From positions 8,782-72,781 of the forward strand of contig QHTD01000155.1 of assembly GCA_003220675.1 (NCBI GenBank): a stretch of 64,000 nt of DNA, read 5' to 3'. Source of the DNA: Candidatus Rokuibacteriota bacterium. Its GTDB lineage: Bacteria > Methylomirabilota > Methylomirabilia > Rokubacteriales > CSP1-6. Below the pieces are notes generated by a model that saw only the letters and a list, made by a program, of their open reading frames with translations, was not told the DNA's origin and ran no database searches. A program made the translations under genes and the position numbers. This document shows, piece after piece, positions 8,713 through 40,140 of this stretch (positions are counted from its first letter, which is position 1; each line of letters starts with the position of its first letter).

Positions 8713-9903
8713 ATGGACTTCGAGTACTCCCCCGTCCAGCACGCTTTCTACAGGGAGTTTCGCGACTGGCTCACGGCGAACCTCCCTGCCGACCTCTGTC
8801 TCGACGATCCAGCCGACGACCGGGTGGCGTCCGATCGGGAGACGTTCGAGCGCCGCCGCGCGTGGCAGAAGACGATGCACGCCGCCGGTTGGGTCGGCAT
8901 CACGTGGCCGAAGGAGTACGGGGGCCGCGGCGCCGGGCTGATCGAGCGGGTCATCTGGGAGGAGGAGTACGCCGCGGCGCGGGCGCCCGTCCTGCCCGGG
9001 AGCATGGGCCTCAACCTCGTGGGGCCCACGATCATCCACTGGGGCACCGACGAGCAGAAGCGCCGCCATCTTCCCGCGATCCTCAATGCCGACGAGGTCT
9101 GGTGCCAGGGCTTTTCCGAGCCCAACGCCGGCTCGGACCTCGCGAGCCTCCGGACGCGCGCGGTGGATCAGGGCGATCATTACGTCGTCAACGGCCAGAA
9201 GGTGTGGACGTCCGGCGCGCACTTCGCCCACTGGATCATCCTGCTCGCCCGCACCAACCCCGACGCGCCCAGGCATCAGGGGATCAGCTGCCTTCTCGTC
9301 CCCATGACGACGCCGGGGATCGCCGTGCGGCCGCTCGTGCTCATGACCGGCCACCACCACTTCAACGAGGTCTTCTTCACCGACGTCGTCGTGCCGAAGA
9401 CGAACCTGCTCGGCCCGGTGAACCAAGGCTGGCGGGTCGCGACGACCACGCTCATGTACGAGCGTCACGCCGCCGGCGGCCGGAGCCATACGGCGCAGAT
9501 CGCCCGGCTCATGGCGCTGGCGAGGCGAGTGCCCGTCGACGGGCGGCCGGCGTGGGAGCACCCGTGGGCCCGCCAGCGGCTCGTCCAGCTCGCGATCGAC
9601 TGCGAGGCGCTCAAGTACACGCGGCTCCGGAGCCTGACGCGCCAGCTCCGCGGAGAGCCGCCCGGCCCCGAGGGCTCCATCCTGAAGCTCACCGGCTCGG
9701 AGCTCGGAGTGCGGATCGCCGACGTGGCCGGTGAGCTGCTCGGCATGCACGTGCTGGTGAACCAGCCCTCCGACGTCGTGCCGGACGCGCCGCGGTGGTT
9801 CAACCGCGTGCTCGCCGCGCGGCAGTACACGATCTCCGCGGGGACGAGCGAGATCCAGCGCAACATCATCGGCGAGCGCGTGCTCGGCCTCCCCAAAGGA
9901 TGA
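8713..9903 (+). CDS. acyl-CoA dehydrogenase family protein
   Basis: GWVGITWPKEYGGRG, WCQGFSEPNAGSDLASLRT, GQKVWTSGAHFA, and C-terminal ISAGTSEIQRNIIGERVLGLP. Confidence 0.9.
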   Translation: MDFEYSPVQHAFYREFRDWLTANLPADLCLDDPADDRVASDRETFERRRAWQKTMHAAGWVGITWPKEYGGRGAGLIERVIWEEEYAAARAPVLPGSMGLNLVGPTIIHWGTDEQKRRHLPAILNADEVWCQGFSEPNAGSDLASLRTRAVDQGDHYVVNGQKVWTSGAHFAHWIILLARTNPDAPRHQGISCLLVPMTTPGIAVRPLVLMTGHHHFNEVFFTDVVVPKTNLLGPVNQGWRVATTTLMYERHAAGGRSHTAQIARLMALARRVPVDGRPAWEHPWARQRLVQLAIDCEALKYTRLRSLTRQLRGEPPGPEGSILKLTGSELGVRIADVAGELLGMHVLVNQPSDVVPDAPRWFNRVLAARQYTISAGTSEIQRNIIGERVLGLPKG

Positions 9904-10322
9904 CCATGGAACTCGACCGCCCGCTACCCAACCCGATCACGCCAGAGGCCAGGCCCTTCTGGGACGGCCTCCGGGAGGGAAAGCTCCTCCTGCCCCGTTG
10001 CCAGTCGTGCGGCCACGTCTTCTTCTACCCGCGCGTCCTCTGCCCGCGCTGCCACGCACGCGATATCACCTGGACCCAGGCGAGCGGCACGGGCACGCTC
10101 CACGCCTTCGAGATCGCCTACCAGGTCTTCAACAAGGCATGGAGGGTCAAGCCGCCCTACGTGCTCGCCATGGTCGAGCTCGCAGAAGGGCCACGGTTGA
10201 TGTCGAACCTCGTCAACGTGGAGCCGGATCCCAGGATCATCAAATGCGAGATGCCCGTGCGAGTCGTCTTCTGCAAGCTGACCGACGAGATCACGCTGCC
10301 GCTGTTCGAGCCGGCCCGGTGA
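9900..10322 (+). CDS. Zn-ribbon/OB-fold protein (DUF35 family)
   Basis: The ATG overlaps the ACAD stop (ATGA). PFWDGLREGKLLLPRCQSCGHVFFYPRVLCPRCHA is followed by an OB-fold-like tail. This family is a typical partner of SCP-x-type thiolases. Confidence 0.85.
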   Translation: MTMELDRPLPNPITPEARPFWDGLREGKLLLPRCQSCGHVFFYPRVLCPRCHARDITWTQASGTGTLHAFEIAYQVFNKAWRVKPPYVLAMVELAEGPRLMSNLVNVEPDPRIIKCEMPVRVVFCKLTDEITLPLFEPAR

Positions 10323-11482
10323 GCCCCGTGGCGGACCCGCGCGCGCTCCGGAACTCCGTGTGCATCGTGGGAGTGGACGAGAGCGACGAGATCGGGAGCC
10401 TGCCCGGGAAGAGCCAGCTCACGCTGCACCTCGAGGCGATCACCAACGCCGTCCGCGACGCCGGGCTCACGATCACTGACGTGGACGGCATCTTCACAGC
10501 AGGCCAGCACTCACCCGCGCTGCTCGGCGAGGCGCTCGGCATCACGCCGCGCTACGTGGACGGCACCACGGTGGGCGGTTGCTCCTTCATCATCGAGGTC
10601 GGCCACGCGGTGGCCGCCCTGCACCACGGGCTCTGCGACGTCGCGGTCATCTCGCACGGCGAGTCCGGCCGCTCCGGCGTGGGCGTGAGCCCGCGGCGCG
10701 ACACGAGCCTCAGCGGCCAGTTCGAGGCGCCCTTCGGCTTCGGGGGCGCGCCCACGCTCTTCGGCATGGTCACCACGCGCCACATGCATGTGTACGGCAC
10801 CACTCTCGAGCAGTGGGCGCAGGTCGCCGTGTCGACGCGCAAATGGGCCATGCTCAACCCGAAGGCGCTCCGTCGCGAGCCGATCACTGTGGCCGACGTG
10901 CTGAACTCGCGGCCGGTGGTCTACCCGTTCAACGTCCTGAACATCTGCCTCGTCACCGACGCCGGCGGCGCCGTCGTGCTGACGCGCGCCGATCGCGCGA
11001 AGGACTGCGCCAAGAAGCCCGTGTACGTCCGAGGCATGGGCGAGTCCACCGAGCACGTGATGCTGACCCAGATGAAGGACCTCACCTTCAGCGAGGCGAC
11101 GCGGATCGCGGGCGAGAAGGCGTTCCGCATGGCGGGCGTCGCCCCAACGGACTTCGACCACATCATGCTCTACGACGCGTTCACCTCGGGGCCGCCCATC
11201 ATGCTGGAGTCGCTCGGCATCGCCAAGCGCGGTGACGGCGTGCACTTCTTCGCGGACGGCCGCTCGACGCCGGGTGGCACGCAGCCGATCAACACCAACG
11301 GGGGCGGCCTCTCCTACACGCACTCCGGGATGTACGGCATCTTCCCGATCATCGAAGCGACGCGGCAGCTCCGTGGCGAGTGTGACCAGCGCCAGGTGCC
11401 GAACGTGAAGCTCTCGCTGGTCAACGGCATGGGCGGCATGCTCTCCGCCGCCGGCACGCTCGTCCTGTCGAACGAGCGCTAG
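10319..11482 (+). CDS. thiolase-like protein (SCP-x / nonspecific lipid-transfer type)
   Basis: GTG 10319 overlaps the DUF35 stop (GTGA). VCIVGVDESDEIG, GGCSFIIEVGHAVAAL, NTNGGGLSYTHSGMYG, LVNGMGGMLSAAGTLVL. Confidence 0.85.
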   Translation: MSPVADPRALRNSVCIVGVDESDEIGSLPGKSQLTLHLEAITNAVRDAGLTITDVDGIFTAGQHSPALLGEALGITPRYVDGTTVGGCSFIIEVGHAVAALHHGLCDVAVISHGESGRSGVGVSPRRDTSLSGQFEAPFGFGGAPTLFGMVTTRHMHVYGTTLEQWAQVAVSTRKWAMLNPKALRREPITVADVLNSRPVVYPFNVLNICLVTDAGGAVVLTRADRAKDCAKKPVYVRGMGESTEHVMLTQMKDLTFSEATRIAGEKAFRMAGVAPTDFDHIMLYDAFTSGPPIMLESLGIAKRGDGVHFFADGRSTPGGTQPINTNGGGLSYTHSGMYGIFPIIEATRQLRGECDQRQVPNVKLSLVNGMGGMLSAAGTLVLSNER

Positions 11483-12534
11483 ATCAGCGCCGCGATCGTC
11501 TGACCGACCTCGGTCGTCGTCGCCCGGCCGCCGAGGTCGCGCGTCAGCGTCTTGCCTTCCTCCACCACCCGCTCGATCGCCGCGACGACGGCGCGCGCCG
11601 CCGCGGCGTGGCCGAGGTGCTCGAGCATCATCGCGCCCGTCCAGATCTGCGCGATGGGATTGGCGATCCCCTTGCCGGCGATGTCCGGGGCGGAGCCGTG
11701 CACGGGCTCGAACATCGACGGGCACTCCTTTTCGGGGTTGATGTTGCCACCCGGCGCCAGCCCAATGGAGCCAGCGAGGGCGGGGCCGAGGTCGGAGAGG
11801 ATGTCGCCGAAGAGATTCGAGGCGACGACGACGTCGAACCAGTCGGGATGCTGCACGAAGTGGGCGGCGAGGATGTCGATGTGGTACCGGGCGGTGTTGA
11901 CGCCCGGATACTCCTTCGCGATGGCGGCGAAACGCTCGTCCCAGTACGGCATGCTGTGGATGATCCCGTTCGACTTGGTCGCCGAGGTCACGTGACGGCG
12001 GGGCCGCCCGATGGCCAGCTCGAAGGCGTAGCGCATGACGCGGTCACAGCCCTTGCGCGTGAAGATCGCCTGCTGGACGGCCAGCTCCTCCGGCGTTCCC
12101 CGGTAGAGCCGCCCGCCGATCTCGGAGTACTCGCCCTCGTTGTTCTCGCGCACGATCAGCATGTCGATGTCGGCAGGTCCTCTTCCGGCGAGCGGCGACG
12201 TGACCCCCTTGAGCAGGCGCACCGGACGCAGATTGATGTACTGGCGGAAGCCGCGGCGGATCGGGATCAGGAGCCCCCAGAGCGAGACGTGGTCGGGCAC
12301 GCCCGGGAAGCCAACGGCGCCCAGGAAAATCGACTCGAACTGCCGGAGCTGGTCGAGACCGTCCTCGGGCATCATTCGGCCGGTCTTCGTGTAGCGCTCG
12401 CAGCTCCAGTCGAACGTCGTCCACTCGAAATCGAAGCCGAACCGGCGGCCGGCGGCGTCCAGCACGCGCTTGCCTTCGGGCACGACCTCCTTACCGATCC
12501 CGTCGCCGGGAATCACGGCGATCCGGTGTCTCAT
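11479..12534 (-). CDS. dmlA: tartrate dehydrogenase / D-malate dehydrogenase (decarboxylating), isopropylmalate dehydrogenase family
   Basis: Start at ATG 12534 (MRHRIAVIPGDGIGKEV). Collinear with E. coli DmlA/YeaU: YINLRPVRL, VRENNEGEYS, SATKSNG, VVASNLFGDILSDLGPA, FEPVHGSAPDIAGKGIANP. The upstream 78 codons of ORF 11479..12768 overlap the next gene. Confidence 0.85.
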   Translation of the reverse strand: MRHRIAVIPGDGIGKEVVPEGKRVLDAAGRRFGFDFEWTTFDWSCERYTKTGRMMPEDGLDQLRQFESIFLGAVGFPGVPDHVSLWGLLIPIRRGFRQYINLRPVRLLKGVTSPLAGRGPADIDMLIVRENNEGEYSEIGGRLYRGTPEELAVQQAIFTRKGCDRVMRYAFELAIGRPRRHVTSATKSNGIIHSMPYWDERFAAIAKEYPGVNTARYHIDILAAHFVQHPDWFDVVVASNLFGDILSDLGPALAGSIGLAPGGNINPEKECPSMFEPVHGSAPDIAGKGIANPIAQIWTGAMMLEHLGHAAAARAVVAAIERVVEEGKTLTRDLGGRATTTEVGQTIAALI

Positions 12535-12920
12535 GGCGTCTTCATCTCCGCGAAGACCTTCTTCGCCGTCAGCATCGCCTCCCGGATGATCGGCGCCCCC
12601 ACGTAGCCCGTCAGGTGGAGCAACACCTCGGTCAGCTCGTCCGCGGTCCAGCCCTGGCGCAACGCCATTCTCAAATGAATGGCCAGCTCGGGCTCGCGCC
12701 CCGTGGCCGCGTCCGACACGACGCAGACGAGCGTCCGTGTCTTGAGGTCGAGCCCCGGGCGCGCCCACAGACTGCTGAAGACGGTCTCGGTGGCGAGGTC
12801 GATGAACTTGCGCATCCTGGGATCGTCGTACGTTGTGCGCTCCGCCTGCTGCACGTACTCGTCGCCCAGCAGCTGGCGGCGGATTTCACGGCCCCGTCGG
12901 TAGGTCTCGCTCTCGGCCAT
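12531..12920 (-). CDS. carboxymuconolactone decarboxylase family protein
   Basis: WARPGLDLKTRTLVCVVSDAATG, ELTEVLLHLTGYVGAP. The stop overlaps the dmlA-like ATG (ATGA). Confidence 0.8.
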   Translation of the reverse strand: MAESETYRRGREIRRQLLGDEYVQQAERTTYDDPRMRKFIDLATETVFSSLWARPGLDLKTRTLVCVVSDAATGREPELAIHLRMALRQGWTADELTEVLLHLTGYVGAPIIREAMLTAKKVFAEMKTP

Positions 12921-13817: not shown

Positions 13818-14675
13818 ATGCCGACGACTGTCCACCAGCGCCAGAACGGCGAAGACGTCTTGGGCGAGACGGAACCGGCGACCCGAAGCGGTGTAGAGCG
13901 AGGCGCGACATCCTTGCTCACGCGGCATGCGGTCGGGCTCGCTGCCCTGGTCCTCACGATGGCTTCTGCGTACATGGCATCCCGACCGAACACTCCACAG
14001 AACGCTCAAGAGGTCGCGCGCCTGACGGACGATTCAGCCGAGGAAGCGACGGACGAAACTACCGTCGTGGAGATCGAGGCCCACATCAGGGAGATCGCCG
14101 TCCGCTACCGCATCTCCCCACGCCTGGTGGCCGCGATCGTCGAGGTCGAGTCCGAGTTCAACCCGCGGGCGGTGTCGCGCAGGGGCGCCCGCGGCCTGAT
14201 GCAGCTGATGCCGGGAATGGCCTCGAGCCTCCAGATCGAGGACATGTTCGACCCTTACGAGAATATCGAGGGCGGCGTTCGCCTCCTCCGCCGCCTGATG
14301 GACCGGTTCCAAGGCAACGTGCCGCTCGTGCTCGCCGCCTACAACGCTGGCGAGCCGGCGGTCCTGATGCACGGCGGAATCCCGCCCTACCGCGAAACTC
14401 GCCGCTACGTGGCCCGGATTCTGCGGCGCATCGGCCACGGGGGCCCAAGCCGAATGGAGACGAAGCTCGCGGGACGACTCCCCGAGGTCAGCGCGTTGAC
14501 CGTGGCGAACCCTGCCCGTATCGACGGGCCGGTGCGCCAAGCGCTCGAGCAACGCGCATTGGAAGAGATCGACCGGAACCCCGCAGCTTCGTCAGGTGAG
14601 GAGCCACCGAGCGCCGATGCGTGGCCCAACGCGGCGGAGCCCATCACGGATCTCTCTCGGTCTCAAGACCCATAA
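13818..14675 (+). CDS. membrane-anchored lytic transglycosylase (SLT domain)
   Basis: Hydrophobic anchor AVGLAALVLTMASAYMA, then AAIVEVESEFNPRAVSRRGARGLMQLMP and LAAYNAGEPAV. Confidence 0.8.
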   Translation: MPTTVHQRQNGEDVLGETEPATRSGVERGATSLLTRHAVGLAALVLTMASAYMASRPNTPQNAQEVARLTDDSAEEATDETTVVEIEAHIREIAVRYRISPRLVAAIVEVESEFNPRAVSRRGARGLMQLMPGMASSLQIEDMFDPYENIEGGVRLLRRLMDRFQGNVPLVLAAYNAGEPAVLMHGGIPPYRETRRYVARILRRIGHGGPSRMETKLAGRLPEVSALTVANPARIDGPVRQALEQRALEEIDRNPAASSGEEPPSADAWPNAAEPITDLSRSQDP

Positions 14676-14693
14676 TCGAAGGAGGAGGTTCAG

Positions 14694-15929
14694 ATGATTG
14701 AGCGGATCATGGGTAGATTCCCGGAGGCGTGGCGCGAGCTGATCGAGTTGGCCGCCGCGCCGATCGCCTGGCTTCCAGGGCTCCAGCACATGGCGATCAG
14801 GTTCTTTTTCGACTCTCCGTCCGGCTGGGCGGCGACCGCCAAATTTGTCTTCCTCCTGTTGCCCATACTCCTCAGCTTCGCCGCCATCTGGTGCACAGGG
14901 TTCTCCCTCTACACGCTGCCGTTCCGATCGCGGCGAATCGACTTCGTCTCGACGCTCCTGATGACGTGGTGGGACGCCGCCCGCGCGGTCTGGATGTACT
15001 GGATCGGCATTCTGCGGATGGGCGCCGTCGTGATCGGCTGGCTGGTCACCCTCGTCGGCCTCGCCCTGAAACTCGGCTTCGAGGCGCTTCGCCAACTCGT
15101 CCTCCTGCCGTGGTCGGTGTCGGGCCGGATGACGGACCGGTACTTCCGGGGCGGCGTGCCATGGCTCGCCTTCGGGATGCTGCTCGGCTGGTCGGCGCTG
15201 GAGGCGACGATCTTCAGTTTCACGCTGATGCCGACCCTGTCGCAGGTGCTGGCCGACCTCGCGGGCACCGACGGGGTGCCGCGGGCGACCACGATGGTCC
15301 TCTGGTGCTTCCTGCTCCTGTTGATCATGGGCAGCTTCGCCTGCGTCCAGGCGCTGGTCGAGGCGGTCGAGAAGAGGGAGGTCAAGTTCATCGTCCAGAT
15401 CGCCCTGGTCGAAATGTTCGTCATGTTCTTCGAGGTGATGTTCCTCTACCGGGAGCTGGTTGACGCCGTCACGCCCTGGATCGTCCAGCAGACGGGGGAC
15501 AGCTTCCATCCCGGGCTCTTTTTCACGCTGGGCGTGGCGGCGTTCGGCTGGGTCGGCATTCGCGGCATGACGTGGTTCCTGTTCGGCCAGTACGGGACGC
15601 CGCCGCTGCTCGCCTTCATCTCACGGGAGCCCATGGCCCCCATCGAAGGTCGACCGGTGGTGAAGGAGGCCAACGAGCCCTCCTGGTGGAAGGAGCCGCT
15701 CGCAGACTTCAAGAAGGAGATCGGTTGGCTCCACGACAAGAGCGACCAGCTCCTCGAGTACCTCGCCCTGCCCGCCCTGCACCTCCTCGCCGCCGCGATG
15801 AACTTCGCCATGGTGCTGATAACGGCGCGGCCCGTGTTCGCCCTGCCGTTCAAGAGCCTGAAGGAGGTGACGGAGACGCGGGAGATGCTCGGAGTGCACC
15901 TTCAGCCGAAGAGGCAGGCCAGCGCATGA
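14694..15929 (+). CDS. polytopic membrane protein of unknown function (411 aa)
   Basis: Strong RBS GGAGGAGG 14681-14688. About 8 hydrophobic segments. No motif recognised. Confidence 0.7.
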   Translation: MIERIMGRFPEAWRELIELAAAPIAWLPGLQHMAIRFFFDSPSGWAATAKFVFLLLPILLSFAAIWCTGFSLYTLPFRSRRIDFVSTLLMTWWDAARAVWMYWIGILRMGAVVIGWLVTLVGLALKLGFEALRQLVLLPWSVSGRMTDRYFRGGVPWLAFGMLLGWSALEATIFSFTLMPTLSQVLADLAGTDGVPRATTMVLWCFLLLLIMGSFACVQALVEAVEKREVKFIVQIALVEMFVMFFEVMFLYRELVDAVTPWIVQQTGDSFHPGLFFTLGVAAFGWVGIRGMTWFLFGQYGTPPLLAFISREPMAPIEGRPVVKEANEPSWWKEPLADFKKEIGWLHDKSDQLLEYLALPALHLLAAAMNFAMVLITARPVFALPFKSLKEVTETREMLGVHLQPKRQASA

Positions 15930-16696
15930 GCCGCCGCGGCAGCTCGCTCACCCTCGCGCTGCTCTCGACCACCCTGCTCGCGACGACGGCGATGGCGCAG
16001 CGGGCGACCGACCGCACGGGGCGGGACACGATGTTCGTCGGCGTGGACACGAGCGGGTCCTTCGTCCAGGCGGGTGATTACGCCAACGCCATGGGCTTCC
16101 TCGCCTACTACATCTATGGCCACCTCCACGGCCTCGGCGGGCTCACCCAGGTGAAGGAGCTGTTCGTCGCCGCCATCGGGGGCAAGGAGGCGGGCGAGCC
16201 CAAGGCTTTTCACCCGACCCTCGAGTTCGCGGACAAGGACATCGCGGGGATCGAGGCGAACCTGAGGCGCTGGTACCCGCCCACCGACACGCTCACCGAC
16301 TTCAACGTCTTCTTCGAGCAGGTGGCCCGGGTCACCAAAGAGCGCAACCTCGTCCTCAGCCCGATCACGGTGCTGCTGGTGACCGACGGCGTTCCCGACA
16401 TACCGCACCCGACCTTCAAGCCTGGCTCGAAGGGCATGTACCGAACGATCAACCTCGCTCCGCTCGAATACCTGTCGAGAAACCTCACGCTGCGAGTAGC
16501 GTATACGAGCCCCAAGGTGGCAGAGTTTTGGCGGACGGAAGTCCCTCGGCAGCGGGTCAGGCTCTGGACGGCCGAGGCCGAGATCATGAGAACCTGGCGC
16601 AGTCAGGTCATAGACGCCGCGCCGCCCGACCAGGCCCGCCTGTGGAAGTGGGTGCGGCAGACGCTCGACTTTCGCGTCCGTGTGCGCCCGCTCTGA
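15926..16696 (+). CDS. secreted vWA-like protein
   Basis: The ATG overlaps the preceding stop (ATGA). Signal peptide MSRRGSSLTLALLSTTLLATTAMA. MIDAS-like VGVDTSGSF and LLVTDGVPD. The upstream part of ORF 15572..16696 is out-of-gene read-through. Confidence 0.6.
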   Translation: MSRRGSSLTLALLSTTLLATTAMAQRATDRTGRDTMFVGVDTSGSFVQAGDYANAMGFLAYYIYGHLHGLGGLTQVKELFVAAIGGKEAGEPKAFHPTLEFADKDIAGIEANLRRWYPPTDTLTDFNVFFEQVARVTKERNLVLSPITVLLVTDGVPDIPHPTFKPGSKGMYRTINLAPLEYLSRNLTLRVAYTSPKVAEFWRTEVPRQRVRLWTAEAEIMRTWRSQVIDAAPPDQARLWKWVRQTLDFRVRVRPL

Positions 16697-16737
16697 GGAG
16701 TGTCTGAGCCCGTGAGGCCGGTGATAGGCTGATCGCG

Positions 16738-18141
16738 ATGCGCTATCACTTCTCCGGCGTCGCCGGCGCCGGCATGAACCCCCTCGCGTGTCTGATGCGG
16801 GCGCGCGGCCACGAGGTCCAGGGCTCCGATCGCTCGTTCGACCAGGGGAAGAACCGGGAGATCGCCGCGCATCTCCGGCGGTTGGCAATCCAGCTTGCGG
16901 CGCACGACGGGACGGCCGTGACGCCAGCGATCGATCGCTTCGTCTACTCGACGGCGGTCGAGGCCGACACGCCCGAGATGCGCGCCGCGCGTGCACTCGG
17001 CCTCGACTGCGTGTCCCGGCCACAGCTCCTCGCCGAGGTGGTCAACGCTGGTGGGCCGGGCGTTGCCGTCGCGGGCACGAGCGGTAAGAGCACGATCATC
17101 GGCATGGTGGCCTGGCTCCTGCGCGAGACGGGCGTGCCTGCCACGGTGCTCGGCGGTGCCGCACTCGTAGGCGAAGGCACGGGCGGCTGCTTCGTCGCCG
17201 GCCCCGCCGAGGGCCCCGTCGTCGCGGAGGCCTGTGAGTCCGACGGCACGCTCGTCGGCTACCGGCCCGCGATCGGTCTCGTGCACAATGTGAGCCGCGA
17301 CCACGCCGAGCTGGATGCGCTGCGCCCTCAGTTCTCGGCCTTCGCCGAGAGCTGCGGCCGGCTCCTCGTCAACGCGGCCTGCCCGGAGGCGGCTGCGCTC
17401 GGGCGCCGGTTCAAGGCATCCACGTACGGCGTCTCGCCCGGCGCCGACACGCGTCTTCGAGTCACGAGCGCGGGCCCCCGCCGCGCGACGGGCTCGCTTC
17501 GGCTCGAGGGCCGCGTCGTGGTGCTCGACGTCCCGCAGCCCGGGCTCCACAACCTCGAGAACGCCGCCGCCGCCGCGCTGTTGGCGCTCGAGCTTGGGGT
17601 TGACGCTTCCGCCCTGGAGGCCCCGCTCGCCCGCTTCCCCGGCGTGGCGCGCCGGTTCGAGGTGGTCGGCACGACGACGAGCGGCATCCGCGTCGTGGAC
17701 GACTACGCCCACAACGGCGAGAAGATTCGCGCGGCTGTCACCACGGCGCAGGCCGGCGCGCCGCGCGTGGTCGCTGTCTTCCAGCCCCACGGGTTCGGCC
17801 CGGCTCGCTTCCTGCGCCAGGAGTTGAAGGAGCTGCTACCGAGGCTGCTCCGGCCTCAGGACCGCTTCTGCTACGCCGAGATCTTCTACACCGGCGGCAC
17901 GGTCGCGAAGGACGTCTCGAGCCGAGCCCTGGCGGCCGACCTCCCTGCCGAGATGCGCTGCGGCTACGCCCGCGACCACGACGCCGTTCGTCAGTGGGCG
18001 CTGAGCGAGGCGCAGGCCGGCGACACCGTGCTCATCATGGGCGCGCGCGATCCCGACCTTCCTCGCCTCGCGCGCAAGGTGTTCGAGTCGCTGTCGGTAT
18101 GGGCTTCCTCGACAAGTAGCAACCTGCTGGGCTGGCGCTAA
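16738..18141 (+). CDS. Mur ligase family protein (MurC/Mpl-like)
   Basis: MurC-type N-terminus HFSGVAGAGMNPLACLMRARGHEVQGSD, P-loop AGTSGKSTIIGM, EACESDGT, NVSRDHAE, RRFEVVG, VVDDYAHNGEKI, VFQPHGF. It is not in a dcw/mur cluster. Confidence 0.8.
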   Translation: MRYHFSGVAGAGMNPLACLMRARGHEVQGSDRSFDQGKNREIAAHLRRLAIQLAAHDGTAVTPAIDRFVYSTAVEADTPEMRAARALGLDCVSRPQLLAEVVNAGGPGVAVAGTSGKSTIIGMVAWLLRETGVPATVLGGAALVGEGTGGCFVAGPAEGPVVAEACESDGTLVGYRPAIGLVHNVSRDHAELDALRPQFSAFAESCGRLLVNAACPEAAALGRRFKASTYGVSPGADTRLRVTSAGPRRATGSLRLEGRVVVLDVPQPGLHNLENAAAAALLALELGVDASALEAPLARFPGVARRFEVVGTTTSGIRVVDDYAHNGEKIRAAVTTAQAGAPRVVAVFQPHGFGPARFLRQELKELLPRLLRPQDRFCYAEIFYTGGTVAKDVSSRALAADLPAEMRCGYARDHDAVRQWALSEAQAGDTVLIMGARDPDLPRLARKVFESLSVWASSTSSNLLGWR

Positions 18142-18164: not shown

Positions 18165-19268
18165 TCAGGCGATCACCGCTCCCGCGCGGCGCCGTCCGCG
18201 TCCACCCCGCCGCCCGCGCCGCCGACGCGGTAGAGTCGCTGGCTCAGGCTCGCGCGCCTCGCCGGCCGCCGCCGCGATGGGCTCCGCATGCGCCGCCTCG
18301 CCCACCAGCGTGATCATGCCCGTTGGGCTCACCATCAGTTCCTTGATCCGGCGGAGCCGCGTGACGAGTCGCGGCGAGCCGGGTGGTCGGCTGAAGCCCC
18401 GGGCCTTGAGCGTCCGGGCCAGCGTGTCGAGCAGGACAGCGCCGTTCGGCGACTGCTGGGCCAGCTCGCCGACGACACCGACGAGCTCGTCGTGGGGCGC
18501 GGTGTGCGCCTCGCTCGCGTGGGCTGCGGATGCTGGCTCGTGACGCCGCGGCTCGGCCCGTCTCGGCTCGGCGAGAGACGCAGGCGCGCGCCCGCCGCGA
18601 CGACCCCGCCGTCCCCGGCGCCGCCCCGACCCACCTGCCGCCTGAACCTCACGCGGCTCCACCGACGGCGCGCCGGCGAGCGCGCGATAGGAGAGCCGGC
18701 GGAACGCGATGCCGAGGGCAGCCGCCACATCGCCCACGGCGTCGAAGGCGCGGTCATCCGACACGATCTCCAGAACGTCGCCCGGGCGCGCGGCGGCCAA
18801 CCACACACCCGCGCTCACCGCGATACGGAGGTCGCTCCAGTCTTTCACCCCGGAGGAGGGCGCACTGTGGACGAGCTGGGCGCCCTGGCGCGCGAGCAGG
18901 CGCGCCGTGTCTGGGCCGATCACGCGCCAGTTCCCGACCGCCACGAACTCGGTACGCCCGCCCAGGGGGTCGATCGCGAGGTGCTCGATCACCCGTGCAA
19001 TGTGCGCGGGGTGGCTCGCGTTCTCGACGTCGTAGAAGATCGCCCGCCGGCTCGTCGGCAGCGGCGGCCCCGGGGCCGGTGGCCGCACGCGCGCGGCGAA
19101 GACGGGCTCGGGTGTGGCGAGCGGCACGACGGGCTCGTGCTCGAGGGTAGGCTCCTGCTCGGCGGCGGGCTCTTCGATCAACGGCTCGGGAGCAGGCGCG
19201 ATCTCCGGGGCGGGGCTCGCCTTCGCAGCACCCTGGCGGCGGGGCCGCCCGGCGCTTATACGTTCCAT
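18165..19268 (-). CDS. NYN-domain protein with OST-HTH/LOTUS-like C-terminal domain and Arg-Gly-rich tracts
   Basis: NYN-like core IFYDVENASHP...FVAVGNW...DWSDLRIAVSAGVW...LEIVSDDRAFDAV. C-terminal HDELVGVVGELAQQSPNGAVLLDTLARTLKARGF. Two RRRGRRGRRGGR-type tracts. Confidence 0.7.
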   Translation of the reverse strand: MERISAGRPRRQGAAKASPAPEIAPAPEPLIEEPAAEQEPTLEHEPVVPLATPEPVFAARVRPPAPGPPLPTSRRAIFYDVENASHPAHIARVIEHLAIDPLGGRTEFVAVGNWRVIGPDTARLLARQGAQLVHSAPSSGVKDWSDLRIAVSAGVWLAAARPGDVLEIVSDDRAFDAVGDVAAALGIAFRRLSYRALAGAPSVEPREVQAAGGSGRRRGRRGRRGGRAPASLAEPRRAEPRRHEPASAAHASEAHTAPHDELVGVVGELAQQSPNGAVLLDTLARTLKARGFSRPPGSPRLVTRLRRIKELMVSPTGMITLVGEAAHAEPIAAAAGEAREPEPATLPRRRRGRRGGRGRRRAGAVIA

Positions 19269-19361: not shown

Positions 19362-20090
19362 CTAGTCCTCCAGGACCATCCGCCGGAACGCCTCCGCGGC
19401 GCGAAGCCGGCGCCGGGCGCCCTGCTGTCGGGCCCAGCCGCGGATCATCGGCGACGGGTCCCAGTCGCCCATCTGGCTCCGGTGCTCGCGCAGCGCGCTG
19501 ATCTTGAGATCGAGCACGCCGGCGATGTCCACGAAAGCGTCGGCCCGCTCCGAGCCGTGCACCCACACCTCCCGCACGTGGTGCGGCTCGAGCCCCTCGT
19601 CGAGCAGCTCGGGGAAGATGAAGCGCGTCCCGGCCGAGGGAAAGACCGCGTCGAGGACCACGTCGGCCGCCACGCGGTGGTCGGGATGGTTGAGGTAGCG
19701 CGTACCGTAGAAGCGCATCGTCGGGTCACCGCACACGACCGCGTCCGGACGATAGCGGCGGATCACGCGGGTAAGCTCGCGCCGGAGCGCGAGCGTGGGC
19801 TGGAGCATCCCGTCCTCCCCGCCGAGGAAGACGACCTCGGCGATGCCCAGCACGCGGCAGGCCGCGCGCTGCTCCTCTTCGCGGATCTTCACCAGGCGCT
19901 CACGCGTCATGTCGGCGGGCGTGTGCTGGTTCGAGCCGGCCTCGCCGCTCGTGAGGCAGACCGTCACGATGTGGCTGCCCGCCCGCGCCCACTTTGCCAG
20001 CGTTCCCGCGACGGTGAACTCCTGATCGTCGGGGTGCGCGTGGATCGACAGCACGCGCGCGGGCGCGGGTGGCTCCTTGCTTCGCTTCAC
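19362..20090 (-). CDS. PIG-L (LmbE-like) family deacetylase
   Basis: VLSIHAHPDDQEF, VCLTSGEAG, NHPDHRVAA. Confidence 0.85.
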   Translation of the reverse strand: MKRSKEPPAPARVLSIHAHPDDQEFTVAGTLAKWARAGSHIVTVCLTSGEAGSNQHTPADMTRERLVKIREEEQRAACRVLGIAEVVFLGGEDGMLQPTLALRRELTRVIRRYRPDAVVCGDPTMRFYGTRYLNHPDHRVAADVVLDAVFPSAGTRFIFPELLDEGLEPHHVREVWVHGSERADAFVDIAGVLDLKISALREHRSQMGDWDPSPMIRGWARQQGARRRLRAAEAFRRMVLED

Positions 20091-20331: not shown

Positions 20332-21345
20332 TCACCCGAGCGCCTCCCAGATCCCGATCAGCGCCTCGTACTCCTGCATCCAGTAGCGGTGGTCGCGGAA
20401 GTGCGGGAAGGCCTGCGGGAACGAGGGGTCGTCCCACCGCTGCGCGATCCAGCCCGACATTTCGACGATGCGCAGGGCTCGCAGCGGCTCGCAGAGCGCG
20501 AGCGTCGAGCGGTCGAACTCGCGAAACAACTCGTAGCCCTCGAGGAGGTCCTCACGCGCCCGGCGCGCTTCCTCGGAGTCGCCGCGCGCGAGGAGCCAGA
20601 GGTCCTGGACGGGCGGGCCGACGAGGCAGTCGTCGAAGTCGATAAGGATCGGACCGTCGGTCGCCCAGAGGATGTTGCCCCAGTGGAGGTCGCCGTGAAT
20701 GCGCTGTACCCGGGCGGCGGCGAGCGGCGCCGCGACGGCGTCGGCGGTGCGCAGCGCGACGTCGCGGTAGCGTGACGCCAGGCCGTCGGGGATGAAGCCG
20801 CCCTTCGCGAGGACCTCCAGGGGCTCGCGGATGTAGCGCGTCACGTCGAGGCGCGGCCGGTGCGGGGCGTCGCGGGCGGCGCCCACCGCGTGCATACGGC
20901 CGATGGTCCGGCCGATGCGGCGGCGGTTCTCGGCGTCCAGCTCGTCGAGCGTACGGCCGCGCACCTTCGGGAACGCCGCGTAGAGGATGCCCTCGATCTC
21001 GCCGAGCGTGCCGCCGATGCCGAGGTCGAGCGGCGCCACGGCCGGCACCTCGGCGGCTGCCAGGTCCGAGAGGAACGCGTGCTCGTCCAGGATCGTCTCG
21101 CGCGACCAGCGGCCGGGCCGGTAGAACTTCATGACGAGCCGCCGCTCGTCCTCCAGCTCGACCTCGTAGACGCGGTTTTCGAACGCGCGCAGCGGCAGGC
21201 AGCGCCCGGTGCAGCGGAGGCCGCCCACCTCGACCGCGGCGAGCACGCGGTCGGGAGTGAGGGAGAAGAACGAGGCGGCGGCTTCGCCGGTCAACGGTAC
21301 GTTACGTTTTGGCTTCGATCTTCGCCCACGTATCGCGTAGTCCAA
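20332..21345 (-). CDS. srkA: serine/threonine protein kinase, SrkA/YihE (RdoA) type
   Basis: [57 protein letters not shown]. The ORF-track start (TTG 21345) overlaps glnS by 44 nt; the in-frame TTG at 21294 is an alternative. Confidence 0.8.
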
Positions 21346-22978
21346 CGGCGCGGTTGAAGACCAGGCGCCCGGGCGCGGAGTCGCGGGAGTCCACGGAGAA
21401 GTAGCCCTGGCGCTCGAACTGGAAGCGGTCGCCCGCCTTCGCCCCCGCCAACGACGGCTCGAGCTTGGCGCCGCGGAGCACCTCGAGGGAGCGCGGGTTG
21501 ACGAGCGTCTTCCAGTCCTCGGTCTCGTCGGGCTTGGGCGCGGTGAAGAGATGGTCGTAGAGGCGCACCTCGGCGTCTACCGCGTCGGCGGCCGAAACCC
21601 AGTGAATGGTCCCCTTGACCTTACGCCCGCGCGCATCGCCGCCGCGGCTCGCCGGATCATACTCACAGCGCACGGTCGTCACCTGCCCCGCGGCGTCGCG
21701 CTCGACGCCGGTGCACTTGACGATGTAGGCGTAGCGCAGCCGTACCTCGACGCCGGGCGATAACCGGAAATACTTGGGCGGCGGCGGGTCGCGGAAGTCG
21801 TCCTGCTCTATATAAAGGATGCGCGCGAAAGGGACCTTGCGGGTACCCGCTCCCGGGTCCTCGGGGTTGTTGACCGCGTCCAGCTCCTCCGCGTGCCCTT
21901 CGGGATAGTTCTCGATGATCAGCCGCAAAGGCCGGAGCACGGCCATGCGTCGCTCGGCGCGGAGGTTCAGGTCCTCGCGCAGGCAGTGCTCGAGGAGCGC
22001 GATGTCCACGAGGTTGTCGGCCTTGGCGATGCCGATGCGCTCGCAGAAGTCGCGGATGGCCCCGGGCGTGTAGCCGCGGCGGCGCAGCCCCGCGAGCGTA
22101 GGCATGCGCGGATCGTCCCAGCCCGAGACCAGGCCCTCCTCGACGAGCTGGAGGAGCTTGCGCTTGGACATGACGGTGTGGGAGAGGTTCAGGCGCGCGA
22201 ACTCGATCTGGCGCGGGGCGTAGATGCCGAGCGCCTGGATGTACCAGTCGTAGAGCGGGCGGTGGTCCTCGTACTCGAGCGTGCAGAGGGAGTGCGTCAC
22301 GCCCTCGATCGAGTCGGACTGGCCGTGGGCCCAGTCGTACATGGGATAGATGCACCACGTGTCGCCCGTCCGGTGGTGCGCCGTCTTCCTGATCCGGTAC
22401 ATGACCGGGTCGCGCAGGTTCAGGTTGCCCGCGGCCATGTCGATCTTGGCGCGCAGGGTCTTCGAGCCGTCGGGGAACTCGCCGGCCCGCATCCGGCGGA
22501 AGAGGTCGAGGTTCTCCCCGACTGCGCGGTTGCGGTACGGGCTCTCCCGGCCAGGCACGGTCAGCGTGCCGCGGTACTCGGCGACCTGGTCGGGCGTGAG
22601 GTCGTCCACGTAAGCGAGGCCCTTCTTGATCAGCGCCTCGGCCCACTCGTAGAGCCGGTCGAAGTAGTCGCTCGCGTGGTAGAGGTGCGGGCCCCAGTCG
22701 AAGCCGAGCCAGCGCACGTCCGCCTTGATCGCCTCGACGTACTCGGTGGTTTCCTTGGCGGGGTTCGTGTCGTCGAAGCGGAGGTGGCAGCGCCCGCCGA
22801 ACTCCAGCGCGAGGCCGAAATCGAGGCAGATCGCCTTCGCATGACCGATGTGCAGATAGCCATTCGGCTCGGGCGGAAAGCGTGTGACGATGCCCTTGTA
22901 CCGCCCGGACTTCAGGTCTTCGAGCGCCGCGTCGCGGATGAAGTTCGAGGGTTTGTCCTTGGCCTCCAGCTCGCTCAT
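21302..22978 (-). CDS. glnS: glutamine--tRNA ligase
   Basis: [19 protein letters not shown] (HIGH), RFDDTNP, VMSKRKL (KMSKS-type). Full-length collinearity with GlnRS. Confidence 0.95.
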
Positions 22979-35492: not shown

Positions 35493-36416
35493 CTAGCACG
35501 CGCGCCTGGCGAGCGTGCGCAGGCGCGCCGCCGCCTCCACGAGCCCGCCCGGCAGGAGCAGAACGATCGTGATGAACAGCGCGCCGAAGATCAACAGGTG
35601 GAAGTCCACCCAGCGGATCGCCAGGTACTCCTTGAGGAAGACGTAGAAGATCGCGCCCAGCACCGGGCCGTGGACCGTGCCGACGCCGCCGATGAACGTG
35701 ATGAGGAGGGCGTCGAAGGTCCAGTGCGGCCCGAAGGGGTGCGCAGGGTAGTAGCTGATGTGGTAATAGGCGAAGAGCCCGCCCGCGAGCCCGGCGAGCG
35801 CCGTCGAGAGCACCAGGGCCAGGAGCTTGAGCCTGAGCGTGCCGACGCCGCTGGCCTCGGCCGCCTCTTCGTCCTCGCGGACCGCCTGCATGCCGAGGCC
35901 GGCCCGCGAGCGCTCGAGGGCCGCCACGACGCCGACGGCCACCGCCGCCAGCGCGAGCGCGAAATAGTAGCGGTCGGCGAGGCGGTAGGCGCCGATCGTC
36001 GCCGTCGGCAGCGTCGAGACCTCGGGCAGCACGTTGCCGACGGTGATGCGCAAGATTTCGCCGAGCGCGAGCGTGCCGATGGCGAAGTAGGCGCCTCGGA
36101 GACGGAAGGCGACGGCGCCGACGAGCAGCGCGAACGCGGTCGCGGCCAGCGCGCCCAGCGCCGCCCCCGCGAGCACCGGCCACTCGGCGATCCAGAGCGT
36201 GCGCGTGACGAGGGCGCCGAGGCCGAAGAACGCCGCGTGGCCGAGGTTGATCTGGCCGGCGTAGCCGGCGACGACGTTCCACGACTGGGCGAGCGCCACC
36301 GAGAGGAGCACGAGGAAGAGGAAGTTCAGCACGTCGTCGCGCCGGACGACGAGCGGCACCGCCGCCAGGGCGGCCAGCGCCGTCACGCCGAGCGCGAGCC
36401 ACCCGCGACGGCTCAT
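35493..36416 (-). CDS. livM: branched-chain amino acid ABC transporter permease
   Basis: The ATG overlaps the livH stop (ATGA). AGYAGQINLGHAAFFGLGA, REDEEAAEASGV. Confidence 0.9.
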   Translation of the reverse strand: MSRRGWLALGVTALAALAAVPLVVRRDDVLNFLFLVLLSVALAQSWNVVAGYAGQINLGHAAFFGLGALVTRTLWIAEWPVLAGAALGALAATAFALLVGAVAFRLRGAYFAIGTLALGEILRITVGNVLPEVSTLPTATIGAYRLADRYYFALALAAVAVGVVAALERSRAGLGMQAVREDEEAAEASGVGTLRLKLLALVLSTALAGLAGGLFAYYHISYYPAHPFGPHWTFDALLITFIGGVGTVHGPVLGAIFYVFLKEYLAIRWVDFHLLIFGALFITIVLLLPGGLVEAAARLRTLARRAC

Positions 36417-37279
36417 CGCGCGAAGAGCCCCCGGGGCCGTGCGACGAGCACGGCCAGGAAGATGACGAGGCCGACGACCTCGCGGTACGGCCCGCCGAAC
36501 GCGAACGCGCTCGCCGCCTCCGCGAGGCCGAGGACGAGACCACCGACGAAGGTGCCGAGCATCGAGCCGAGCCCGGCGAGGACGACTACGATGAGCGCCT
36601 TCAGCGTCCACTCGAGCCCGATGGACGGGCTGATCGAGTAGCCGACGCTCACGAGCGTCCCCGCGGCGCCGGCGAGACCGGTGCCGATTGCGAAGGCAAG
36701 GAGGTAAGCGCGCCGGACGTCGATGCCGGTGAGCGCCGCGGCCTCCCAGTCCTCCGCGGTCGCGCGGATCGCCCGCCCCCAGCGCCAGCGCTGGAGCAGG
36801 AGGTGGAGCGCGCCGATCAGCGCGAAGGCGAGGACGAGGCTCGCCAGGCGGACGAGGGGAATCGCGATGGGGCCGAGGGAGAGGACGGCGCCGGCGTAGG
36901 TGGTCGTGATCGAGCGCTCGTCCGCCGTCCACAGGCGCACGGCCAGAGCGTGCGTCGCGAGCGCCAGTCCGAAACCGATCAGCAGCGAGTTCTTGATACG
37001 CGTCTCCTCGTGCGCCCGCACGACGAAGGCGAAGAGGCCCCAGTAGAGCAGCACGCCGAACGCGAGCGCGCCGGCGACGACGAGCGGAAGCGCGAGCAGC
37101 GGATCGAAACCCAGGAGTACCCAGAGCCAGAAGGCGCCGTAGCCGCCCAGCATGATCAGCTCGCCGTGGGCGACGTTGAGGACCTTCAAGACGCCGAAGA
37201 CGAGCGAGAGGCCGGCCGCGGCGAGGCCGTAGAGGCCGCCGACGAGGAGCCCGAGCACCAGCTGCTGGACGAGGATCAT
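36413..37279 (-). CDS. livH: branched-chain amino acid ABC transporter permease
   Basis: MILVQQLVLGLLVGGLYGLAAAGLSLVFGVLKVLNVAHGE, a typical LivH N-terminus. Confidence 0.9.
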   Translation of the reverse strand: MILVQQLVLGLLVGGLYGLAAAGLSLVFGVLKVLNVAHGELIMLGGYGAFWLWVLLGFDPLLALPLVVAGALAFGVLLYWGLFAFVVRAHEETRIKNSLLIGFGLALATHALAVRLWTADERSITTTYAGAVLSLGPIAIPLVRLASLVLAFALIGALHLLLQRWRWGRAIRATAEDWEAAALTGIDVRRAYLLAFAIGTGLAGAAGTLVSVGYSISPSIGLEWTLKALIVVVLAGLGSMLGTFVGGLVLGLAEAASAFAFGGPYREVVGLVIFLAVLVARPRGLFAR

Positions 37280-38016
37280 GGTAGCGGGGGCCGCGAGCCC
37301 GGCAAACTCGCGAGCGGGCCGAGATAGGCGCGGCGCACGTGCGGATCCTGGAGCAGCGCGGGGCCGCTGCCCTCGCCCGCGACGCGCCCGGCCTCGAGGA
37401 TATAGGCGCGGTGGGCGAGACCGAGGGCGGCCTGGACATTCTGCTCGACGAGGAGGATGGACACGCCGCCCCGGTTGATTTCGCCGATGACGCCGAGGAT
37501 CGTCTCGACGATACGCGGCGCGAGACCGAGGGAGGGCTCGTCGAGGATCAGCAGGCGCGGCGCGGCCATCAGCGCGCGTCCGATCGCCACCATCTGCTGC
37601 TGGCCGCCCGAGAGCGTGCCGGCGAGCTGGCGCCGCCGCTCGCGCAGGATCGGGAAGATCTCGTAAATCCGCTCGCGGCCTCGGCCGAGCCCCGCACGCG
37701 CGTGGGGCGTGAAGGCGCCCAGGTCCAGATTCTCCTCGACGGTCATCCCGCCGAAGAGCCGCCGTCCCTCGGGCACGACCGCGAGGCCGCGCTCGACGAT
37801 CGCGTGCGGCAGGAGGCCCACGATCTCCGCACCGCCGAAACGGATGCGCCCGGCGCGCGGCACCAGGAGCCCCGTGACGCAGCGGATGAGGGTCGTCTTC
37901 CCTGCCCCGTTCGGGCCCAGGAGCGCAACGATCTCGCCGGGGCCGACCCGCAGGGTGACGCCCGAGAGGGCAAGGAACGGCCCGTAGGCGGCCTCGACCG
38001 CCTCGACCTCAAGCAC
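37276..38016 (-). CDS. livF: ABC transporter ATP-binding protein (LivF type)
   Basis: Walker A GPNGAGKTT, signature LSGGQQQM, Walker B LLILDEPS. Confidence 0.9.
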   Translation of the reverse strand: MLEVEAVEAAYGPFLALSGVTLRVGPGEIVALLGPNGAGKTTLIRCVTGLLVPRAGRIRFGGAEIVGLLPHAIVERGLAVVPEGRRLFGGMTVEENLDLGAFTPHARAGLGRGRERIYEIFPILRERRRQLAGTLSGGQQQMVAIGRALMAAPRLLILDEPSLGLAPRIVETILGVIGEINRGGVSILLVEQNVQAALGLAHRAYILEAGRVAGEGSGPALLQDPHVRRAYLGPLASLPGSRPPLP

Positions 38017-38749
38017 GCCGCGCGCCCCCGGCTCCCGTGCCGAGATAGACGTCCACGACGGTCGGGTCGGCGGCGACGGCGTCCGGCGGTCCTTCGGCGA
38101 TCTTCTCGCCCGCGCTCAGCACGATCACCCGGCGCGAGAGGTCGAGAAGCGCCCAGACGATATGCTCGACCATGAGGATCGTCACGCCTTCCCGCTGGAG
38201 CCGCCGCAACAGCACCATCACGCCCTCCGTCTCGACGGGGCTGAGGCCGGCCATCAGCTCGTCGAGCAGCAGGAGGTGCGGCGCGGTCGCGAGCGCGCGC
38301 GCCAGCTCCAGGCGCTTGCGATCCATCAGCGTGAGCGACGCGGCTGGCACGTGCCCGCGGCCACCGAGGCCGACGAGCGCGAGCAACCGTTCGGCCTCGG
38401 CGGCGGCCGTCGCGCGGCGCTCGCGCGCGCGGCCGTAGAGGCGACCGACCAGCACGTTCTCGAGCGCGGAGAGCCCGGCGAACGGCCGGACGTGCTGAAA
38501 CGTGCGCGTGATGCCCTCGGCGCAGACGCGGTGGGGCGACCAGCCCGTGATGTCGCGGCCGGCCAGGCGGATGCGCCCGGCGTCCGGACGGAGCGCGCCG
38601 GTGATCAGGTTGAAGAGAGTGGTCTTCCCCGATCCGTTGGGGCCCATGACCCCGACGAGCTCGCCCTCGTCGACGGTGAAGCTGACTCCGCTGACCGCGC
38701 GGACGCCGCCGAAGGCCTTGGAGACACCCTCCAGTTCGAGGAGCGCCAA
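38009..38749 (-). CDS. livG: ABC transporter ATP-binding protein (LivG type)
   Basis: GPNGSGKTTLFNLITG, GITRTFQ, LLLLDELMAGL. Confidence 0.9.
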   Translation of the reverse strand: MALLELEGVSKAFGGVRAVSGVSFTVDEGELVGVMGPNGSGKTTLFNLITGALRPDAGRIRLAGRDITGWSPHRVCAEGITRTFQHVRPFAGLSALENVLVGRLYGRARERRATAAAEAERLLALVGLGGRGHVPAASLTLMDRKRLELARALATAPHLLLLDELMAGLSPVETEGVMVLLRRLQREGVTILMVEHIVWALLDLSRRVIVLSAGEKIAEGPPDAVAADPTVVDVYLGTGAGGARRA

Positions 38750-38764
38750 CGCTCCGCTAGGCCC

Positions 38765-39946: not shown

Positions 39947-40140
39947 TGACGCCTCCTTGAGCGTGTCAACGCCTCTTCGGCGGGTGGGCGCGCACGGCCT
40001 CTTCATTGACCGCGGTGCCGCAGCTCGGACCCGTCGGCAGGAGGAGATGTGATCTTGAGGAAGTCGGGCGATTTTTCATGGCGGCCAATATAGCAGCACA
40101 GGCCTCGCCACGAACAGGGACCTCGAGAGGCGCACGCGAA

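Follow-up and report, generated by a model that had tools for sequence, protein, structure and literature searches.

Bacterial envelope-associated vWA proteins, such as those of the BatA/BatB and vWA-MoxR systems, are poorly defined in function. BatA/BatB-type proteins carry a recognizable Pfam VWA domain and transmembrane (TM) anchors of their own, and are encoded in operons together with MoxR, DUF58 and TPR genes. The alpha2-delta protein of voltage-gated Ca2+ channels is an extracellular vWA subunit whose metal ion-dependent adhesion site (MIDAS) makes contact with an acidic residue in one of the extracellular loops. Among cell-wall enzymes, specialized SLT enzymes accompany many trans-envelope machines. 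For the MurC ligases, the residues that contact the incoming L-Ala are Tyr346, His348, His376, Arg377 and Arg380 in HiMurC, and F-A-H-H and E-P-R-S-N-T are specific to Mpl (PMC3060825). Here we compare with these systems a block of four genes in a 64,000-nucleotide stretch of DNA from a Candidatus Rokuibacteriota bacterium (contig QHTD01000155.1, positions 8,782 to 72,781; hereafter, the window), which encode an SLT-domain lytic transglycosylase (SLT), a polytopic membrane protein (MEM), an exported protein with MIDAS-like motifs (PERI) and a MurC-like ligase (MUR). The original prediction, made from the nucleotide sequence, viewed the four genes together as a dedicated module for cell-wall remodeling or recycling, or as an envelope-spanning apparatus. 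In place of this speculative four-gene system, we propose a defined two-gene module, MEM-PERI, that combines a new 8-TM family with a predicted cryptic, exported MIDAS-vWA protein.

The MEM-PERI pair across lineages

Two sets of loci were compared. A scan of GTDB species genomes identified MEM relatives in 252 species, from which the best 80 loci, belonging to Methylomirabilota, Nitrospirota (Nitrospira and Manganitrophaceae) and Acidobacteriota, were kept. A distant subgroup, seeded with a 4-sequence MEM alignment, consists of 80 metagenome loci with about 30% identity to the MEM of the window. In 144 of these 160 loci, the gene immediately after MEM is PERI, the remainder being 12 contig ends and four loci of a PERI-less paralog, MEM-B (see below). 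In the GTDB set, PERI follows MEM in 74 of 80 loci (the exceptions are two contig ends and the four loci of MEM-B, here with 51-53% identity), and in the distant subgroup in 70 of 80, the other ten having no more than 256 nt of contig downstream. An overlap of 4 nt between the two genes is common. Pairs with more than 50% identity are present across Nitrospirota (nitrite and Mn oxidizers), Methylomirabilota/Rokubacteria and some Acidobacteriota, and the pair is found also in many unassigned lineages from sediment and soil metagenomes; a cluster look-up showed that the only named members of the distant-subgroup clusters are NC10/Methylomirabilales.

The two outer genes of the block show a much narrower distribution. 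SLT precedes MEM in 10 of the 80 GTDB loci and MUR lies downstream in five, all of them from Rokubacteria, and none of the 80 loci of the distant subgroup contains an SLT or Mur ligase gene within 7 kb. Given that PERI nearly always adjoins MEM and that SLT and MUR rarely do, MEM-PERI is the conserved unit; very probably, it is also the functional unit, with the four-gene block being specific to one lineage. Over most of the family, these counts refute the view of the four genes as a single co-conserved module. Clustering of all neighboring open reading frames (ORFs) in both sets of about 80 loci revealed no other neighbor that recurs across lineages; apart from antisense shadows, it yielded a synteny specific to Nitrospiraceae. 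In about 30 of the Nitrospiraceae loci (among L021-L080), a same-strand gene upstream of MEM-PERI encodes a polytopic membrane protein that has His-rich motifs and is about 430 aa long, an alpha/beta-hydrolase-like gene comes after the pair and a ThiD-like ORF lies further upstream (all identified from translations only); this arrangement was not seen in other phyla.

PERI begins with a signal peptide that ends in ...TTAMA before Q, which is replaced by a lipobox in several orthologs, and has a C-terminal extension rich in Trp and Arg. The protein contains the elements of a MIDAS, namely, D41-x-S43-G-S45, T124(-D125) and D154(-G-x-P-D158), such that its VGVDTSGSF and LLVTDGVPD motifs correspond to invariant MIDAS elements: each of D41, S43, S45, T124 and D154 is retained in 134-135 of the 135 PERI homologs, the distant subgroup included. 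The order of the secondary structure elements fits a vWA domain, with DxSxS following beta1, T preceding a helix and D following a strand. No PDB sequence matches PERI, and a Foldseek search of the PDB with its AlphaFold2 (AF2) model (pLDDT 74.7, pTM 0.72) produced 47 matches at E<=1e-3, nearly all of them vWA/MIDAS domains, with TM-scores of 0.4-0.5; the matches include MDN1, RGLG, factor B, Rpn10, NorD, integrin I-domains and TRAP. Together, the structural matches and the invariant MIDAS residues indicate that PERI is a cryptic vWA/MIDAS protein, new to the vWA superfamily, with a predicted metal site. The initial identification of PERI as a signal-peptide protein with a MIDAS-like signature is thereby supported.

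The MEM protein of the window has no match in Pfam, NCBIfam or PADLOC or among PDB sequences. Nineteen divergent relatives, down to 23% identity, gave sub-threshold noise only in Pfam and NCBIfam, with no similarity to AmpG/MFS or to any known permease among either these or the window protein, and searches of the PDB, by profile and with members of 23-35% identity, detected no match. A profile search against 1.84 billion representative proteins delineated a self-contained family that, at 50% identity, falls into 401 clusters and includes many fragments. As far as these searches reach, MEM is a new family that lacks any described relative, in accord with the initial description of a 411-aa polytopic protein with no recognizable motif. 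Hydropathy across the family points to about 8 TM helices, and the charge of the loops alternates: residues 73-83, 132-156 and 224-232 are positive and, under the positive-inside rule, probably cytoplasmic, and residues 1-46, 181-200 and 254-274, which carry negative charge, probably face the periplasm. The residues that are invariant over 163 MEM sequences include R78, R81, W92-W93-D94, E170, S214, E240, E247, Y252-R253-E254, P261-W262, R290 and N370, and the charged ones fall within the predicted TM helices or next to them. Structure prediction followed by structural search, which had been suggested for both proteins, thus produced a vWA fold for PERI, whereas for MEM the model was poor and no fold was matched.

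SLT and MUR in Rokubacteria

The complete SLT-MEM-PERI-MUR block is present in the window and in five further loci (L005, L006, L007, L009 and L010); MEM-PERI alone is the arrangement in most loci. The MEM-B paralog, 401-402 aa in length and 49-53% identical to the MEM of the window, always has SLT upstream and occurs in PERI-less SLT-MEM-B-MUR arrangements with a 4-nt overlap between MEM-B and MUR (L085-L088), as well as in SLT-MEM-B arrangements without MUR (L073 and L082-L084). Two genomes contain both a MEM-PERI and an SLT-MEM-B locus, namely, VBPC01 (L047 and L073) and DATBJF01 (L081 and L083). In a neighbor-joining tree (midpoint root, no bootstrap), the MEM of the window belongs within the PERI-linked sequences of Rokubacteria, and MEM-B forms a separate Rokubacteria clade that is joined by the MEM of L019, an SLT-MEM-PERI locus. 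SLT-MEM-B-MUR occupies the same syntenic position as the block of the window, with DUF35-thiolase-IsoDH genes on one side and the APH gene on the other. The simplest reading of these arrangements would be that Rokubacteria ancestrally had an SLT-MEM-PERI-MUR block, that MEM-PERI was then duplicated and that some lineages lost PERI from the original locus.

Other details of the block vary within the phylum. Loci L007 and L010 keep all four genes intact within different flanks, and in L005, L006 and L009 a tandem-BON gene is located between PERI and MUR, where the window has a 41-nt spacer. The SLT-MEM-B-MUR loci contain, after MUR, a conserved same-strand ORF of 179-184 aa (L086:11401-11940, L087:7400-7954) that has no Pfam match and is missing from the window.

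The SLT protein is clearly an SLT-domain lytic transglycosylase, as initially proposed, with the domain at residues 90-183 (PF01464, E=5.7e-29) and the motifs EVESEF, GLMQLMP and AYNAG in the translation. It has a hydrophobic anchor or signal at about residues 37-55 and a Pro/Ala-rich C-terminal tail. SLT reaches none of the named Mlt/Slt equivalogs (MltC/D/E/F, Slt70), all NCBIfam matches being at the domain level and far under the cutoffs (for example, 57.5 bits vs 354 for MltF). We regard it as an ordinary member of its family.

MUR contains all three Pfam domains of the Mur ligases (PF01225, PF08245 and PF02875). Its full-length alignments with solved MurCs show an identity of about 29% and scores of 133-158 bits, compared with 36% identity and 299 bits between two canonical MurCs of different lineages. 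Against the murC model TIGR01082, MUR scores 245.1 bits, with a cutoff of 335.1. The UDP-MurNAc-type N-domain (HFSGVAGAGM...GSD), the P-loop GTSGKST, HNLENAAAA (HNxxNAxAA) and RRFE (RRF) are all intact. Of the five residues that contact L-Ala, MUR keeps Y, H and H, and the two arginines are replaced (R377->G and R380->P in HiMurC numbering): MUR reads FQPHGFGPAR where MurC has FQPHR[YF]TRTR. Two more motifs are altered: DDY[AG]HHP of MurC reads DDYAHNG in MUR, and YAAGE reads YTGGT. Because the deviations are fixed in 119 of 120 orthologs, MUR is, judging by its motifs, a distinct, non-canonical MurC-derived subfamily and a new variant among MurC-type ligases.

Mpl was considered as an identity for MUR and rejected, the score against TIGR01081 being 94.5 bits vs a cutoff of 388.7, with Y-A-H-N and Q-P-H-G-F-G replacing the Mpl residues. 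Of the original description of a MurC/Mpl-like ligase located away from any dcw/mur cluster, the MurC-like character and the location stand and the likeness to Mpl does not. MUR lies outside dcw in all contexts sampled, that is, the window and nine other loci; the 64-kb window has no dcw or Mur-ligase signature besides MUR itself, and no signature of dcw, FtsZ, MraY or a canonical MurC was detected in the 1.9 Mb of sequence scanned, which represents loci and not whole genomes.

Layout of the block and its surroundings

The window is most closely related to metagenome-assembled genomes of Candidatus Rokubacteria/Methylomirabilota. The four ORFs are on the same strand and are joined as originally stated, which we confirmed by reading the sequence along with the quoted motifs (Table 1). 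SLT ends with TAA at 14673-14675, followed by the 18-nt spacer TCGAAGGAGGAGGTTCAG, which includes a strong ribosome-binding site, and by the ATG of MEM. The stop of MEM and the start of PERI overlap by 4 nt as ATGA at 15926-15929 (GCATGAGC), and the ATG within this overlap is the start of PERI; a longer ORF that starts with GTG has no support from homologs. Between PERI and MUR, there are 41 nt, and 23 nt downstream of MUR ends a convergent NYN-like gene on the minus strand. No terminator- or promoter-like site beyond the shuffled expectation was detected within the block, in a scan that is uninformative at the G+C content of the window (about 69%). As no terminator-like site rises above that expectation, a single transcript is plausible, and the block is probably a co-directional, co-transcribed operon.

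Table 1. Coordinates of the four-gene block, of neighboring genes and of related features in other Rokubacteria loci. Coordinates refer to the window unless a locus identifier is given.
Feature	Coordinates	Strand	Description
SLT	13818-14675	+	285 aa; Pfam PF01464
SLT-MEM spacer	14676..14693	+	18 nt; Shine-Dalgarno AAGGAGGAGG, read from sequence
MEM	14694-15929	+	411 aa, ~8 predicted TM helices; assigned to a new family
PERI	15926-16696	+	256 aa, exported; predicted cryptic vWA/MIDAS
MUR	16738-18141	+	467 aa; putative non-canonical MurC-type ATP-dependent ligase, three Mur-ligase Pfam domains
NYN-like gene	18165-19268	-	367 aa, Arg-rich termini; NYN-domain match E=2.2e-4, under the Pfam cutoff
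PIG-L/LmbE-type deacetylase	19362-20090	-	downstream of the block
APH-family kinase	20332-21345	-	TTG start listed; downstream of the block
Glutaminyl-tRNA synthetase-like ORF	21302-22978	-	label from translation only
DUF35 (zf-ChsH2/OB), thiolase, Iso_dh (-), CMD-family genes	9795-12920; L085:3471-6961		synteny block shared with distant Rokubacteria
MEM-B	L085:8796-10004; L086:8799-10004; L087:4796-6004; L083:4573-5778; also L073, L082, L084		PERI-less MEM paralog
Tandem-BON (OsmY-like) gene	L009:12014-12595 (equivalent gaps in L005, L006)		exported, 193 aa; PF04972 E=3.8e-35

The NYN-like gene is syntenic in L005, L006 and L009 and is located elsewhere in L010. Further downstream, the APH ORF as listed overlaps the stop of the synthetase-like ORF by 44 nt, so that the true APH start is probably further in. 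The region 35500-40000 of the window shows nothing unusual; it includes a spike of AT skew (+0.30 at 36-38 kb, GC 0.73) that overlies minus-strand ORFs resembling an operon for a branched-chain amino-acid ABC transporter (permeases and binding protein, from translations only).

Possible role of the pair and comparison with known systems

We consider it fairly likely that the block reflects a juxtaposition specific to one lineage rather than a single conserved machine, and that MEM-PERI is a conserved, coupled unit that we propose to be an inner-membrane complex. How such a complex would work can be suggested tentatively, by analogy: MEM would be a translocating or processing protein, with PERI as its periplasmic MIDAS subunit. 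The two genes are translationally coupled, and the proposed complex in the inner membrane would be stoichiometric. MEM would act through its invariant charged residues D94, E170, E240, E247 and R290, and PERI would reside on the periplasmic face of MEM as an exported vWA subunit, in many lineages a lipoprotein. The MIDAS metal would clamp an acidic group, provided either by a residue in a periplasmic loop of MEM, with the invariant E254 after TM6 as a candidate, or by the substrate. In Rokubacteria, the placement of the pair, or of MEM-B, between a membrane-anchored SLT and a MUR with an altered pocket may hint at a substrate related to the envelope or peptidoglycan; such a cell-wall link is suggestive at best.

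Several observations weigh against this proposal. Complex formation, MIDAS docking, the transport-like role and the connection to the cell wall are all inferred. The topology of MEM is a hydropathy estimate; its AF2 model, built from a 22-sequence alignment, is all-helical but poor (pLDDT 58.6), Foldseek with this model returned noise only (best E=4.2), and an hhalign comparison of the N-terminal and C-terminal halves of MEM found no internal repeat of the kind typical of many transporters. Neither the PERI of the window nor eight further homologs match Pfam vWA or NCBIfam models at E<=1, and the assignment of PERI to the vWA domains draws on a medium-confidence model, with the TM-scores given above, and on motifs. 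The cell-wall hint is weakened by the lack of SLT and MUR in about 145 of the 160 loci, by the occurrence of MUR alone (L089, L090 and the P0403 contig), and by the unrelated genes that share the synteny block with SLT and MUR.

The opposite view of the neighborhood, under which MUR is the divergent housekeeping MurC of the phylum, SLT is a housekeeping enzyme as well, and both stand beside MEM-PERI through inherited gene order with no functional meaning, is possible, although we lean against it. MUR (77-88% identity) is about as conserved as the neighboring housekeeping genes for thiolase (81-93%) and APH (79-87%), was seen in all of the Rokubacteria contexts that were sampled, can be monocistronic, and is named UDP-N-acetylmuramate--alanine ligase in several sources; furthermore, the DUF35, thiolase, IsoDH and APH genes, although unrelated, belong to the synteny block as well, which implies that part of the adjacency is indeed inherited gene order. 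This view is harder to reconcile with a ligase that falls under the murC equivalog cutoff, lacks R377 and R380, shows half the similarity to canonical MurCs that these show among themselves, and in newer PGAP annotation is named only 'Mur ligase domain-containing protein'. In addition, the close packing of the genes, with 4-nt overlaps and short spacers, implies that they are co-expressed, and the block outlasts changes of its flanks.

In another reading, the four genes would form a dedicated module for peptidoglycan remodeling or recycling, restricted to Rokubacteria, in which SLT would free anhydromuropeptides, MEM, with PERI, would import these or their peptides, and MUR would, in the manner of Mpl, re-attach a peptide or an unusual amino acid to UDP-MurNAc. 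The adjacency recurs in two paralogous forms, in one of which MEM-B and MUR are translationally coupled, the block stays intact where its flanks have changed, some members of the clade have a tandem-BON envelope gene inserted in the block, and the retention of the UDP-MurNAc and ATP motifs in MUR along with the loss of the two arginines that hold L-Ala would allow for a substrate other than, or larger than, L-Ala. We nevertheless deem such a module unlikely. MEM-PERI has neither SLT nor MUR beside it in Nitrospirota and Acidobacteriota, in most loci of Rokubacteria and in each of the 80 loci of the distant subgroup, and MUR, too, occurs alone; moreover, MUR is not Mpl-like (94.5 vs 389 bits; FQPHGFGP and not E-P-R-S-N-T), MEM resembles neither AmpG/MFS nor a known permease, and, to our knowledge, the vWA domain is not a muropeptide-binding fold. 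What the survey leaves of the dedicated cell-wall module envisaged originally, which is not conserved over most of the family, is a link restricted to this lineage, in the form of the L007 and L010 loci with their different flanks and of SLT-MEM-B-MUR. An envelope-spanning apparatus of the secretion, pilus or motility type that needs a dedicated lytic transglycosylase is most improbable: among the partial NCBIfam matches of SLT, the top one, at the domain level only, is to a flagellar-assembly lytic transglycosylase, whereas most loci have no SLT at all, PADLOC finds no match, and within 7-10 kb in the 160 loci there is no gene for an ATPase, a secretin, an outer-membrane component or a pilin, nor for any other recurrent component. 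A role in defense, considered separately, was rejected, given that there is no PADLOC match.

Returning to the juxtaposition of a conserved MEM-PERI pair with lineage-specific neighbors, the organisms that carry the pair are environmentally dominant and hard to culture, which makes a conserved envelope component a reasonable target for structural genomics. The MUR subfamily, fixed across Rokubacteria without the two arginines that position L-Ala in MurC, is of interest in either of two cases: should the phylum have no other MurC, unusual binding of the first residue of the stem peptide, or an unusual residue at this position, would be predicted, and should MUR be a paralog, it would be a new peptidoglycan-related ligase. 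Literature searches returned nothing relevant on whether MUR is the sole MurC. In the boldest version, which we find quite improbable, MEM-PERI would be an unrecognized inner-membrane machine, with a new-fold 8-TM translocator or enzyme, the periplasmic face of which is under the control of a MIDAS-vWA protein, that in Rokubacteria, together with a dedicated SLT and a MurC-derived ligase of new specificity, would build or recycle a non-canonical muropeptide or install an unusual first stem residue.

Compared with known systems, the arrangement as a whole matches none, in agreement with the initial impression, and its parts differ in how far they depart from their counterparts. SLT shares the strong SLT domain and the ES...GLMQ...AYNAG motifs with the family-1 lytic transglycosylases (Slt70 and the catalytic domains of MltC/E/F) and differs from them in reaching no curated Mlt equivalog, in having a hydrophobic anchor instead of a lipobox, and in the Pro/Ala-rich tail. 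MUR resembles MurC in its three-domain architecture, full-length alignment, UDP-MurNAc-type N-domain, P-loop, HNxxNAxAA and RRF, but deviates from it in the sub-cutoff score, R377->G, R380->P, the changes of HHP to HNG and of YAAGE to YTGGT, and a location that in the sampled contexts is never in dcw. With Mpl, it has in common that it is a MurC-like ligase outside dcw, and a recycling scenario beside a lytic transglycosylase would fit; the TIGR01081 score and the missing Mpl-specific residues set it apart.

PERI is most readily compared with the vWA/MIDAS domains of integrins (I-domains), MDN1, RGLG, complement factor B, Rpn10 and NorD, with which it shares the alternating beta/alpha fold, as modeled, and the full DxSxS...T...D signature. 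Unlike those domains, it is not seen by the Pfam vWA models, and it is predicted to stand alone, as a subunit that is exported or a lipoprotein, has a C-terminal extension rich in Trp and Arg, and is encoded after an 8-TM protein. In the NorD/NorQ, CoxE/CoxD and ViaA/RavA systems, the vWA protein has a MoxR-type AAA+ partner, and none is encoded near PERI in the loci examined; similarly, none of the traits of BatA/BatB (Pfam VWA domain, own TM anchor, operon with MoxR, DUF58 and TPR genes) is present at MEM-PERI. With regard to the Ca2+ channels, no homology is claimed for MEM, and the complex and its docking mode are inferred here; the likeness to alpha2-delta, by way of analogy, is that of an extracytoplasmic MIDAS-vWA subunit paired with a multi-helix membrane protein.

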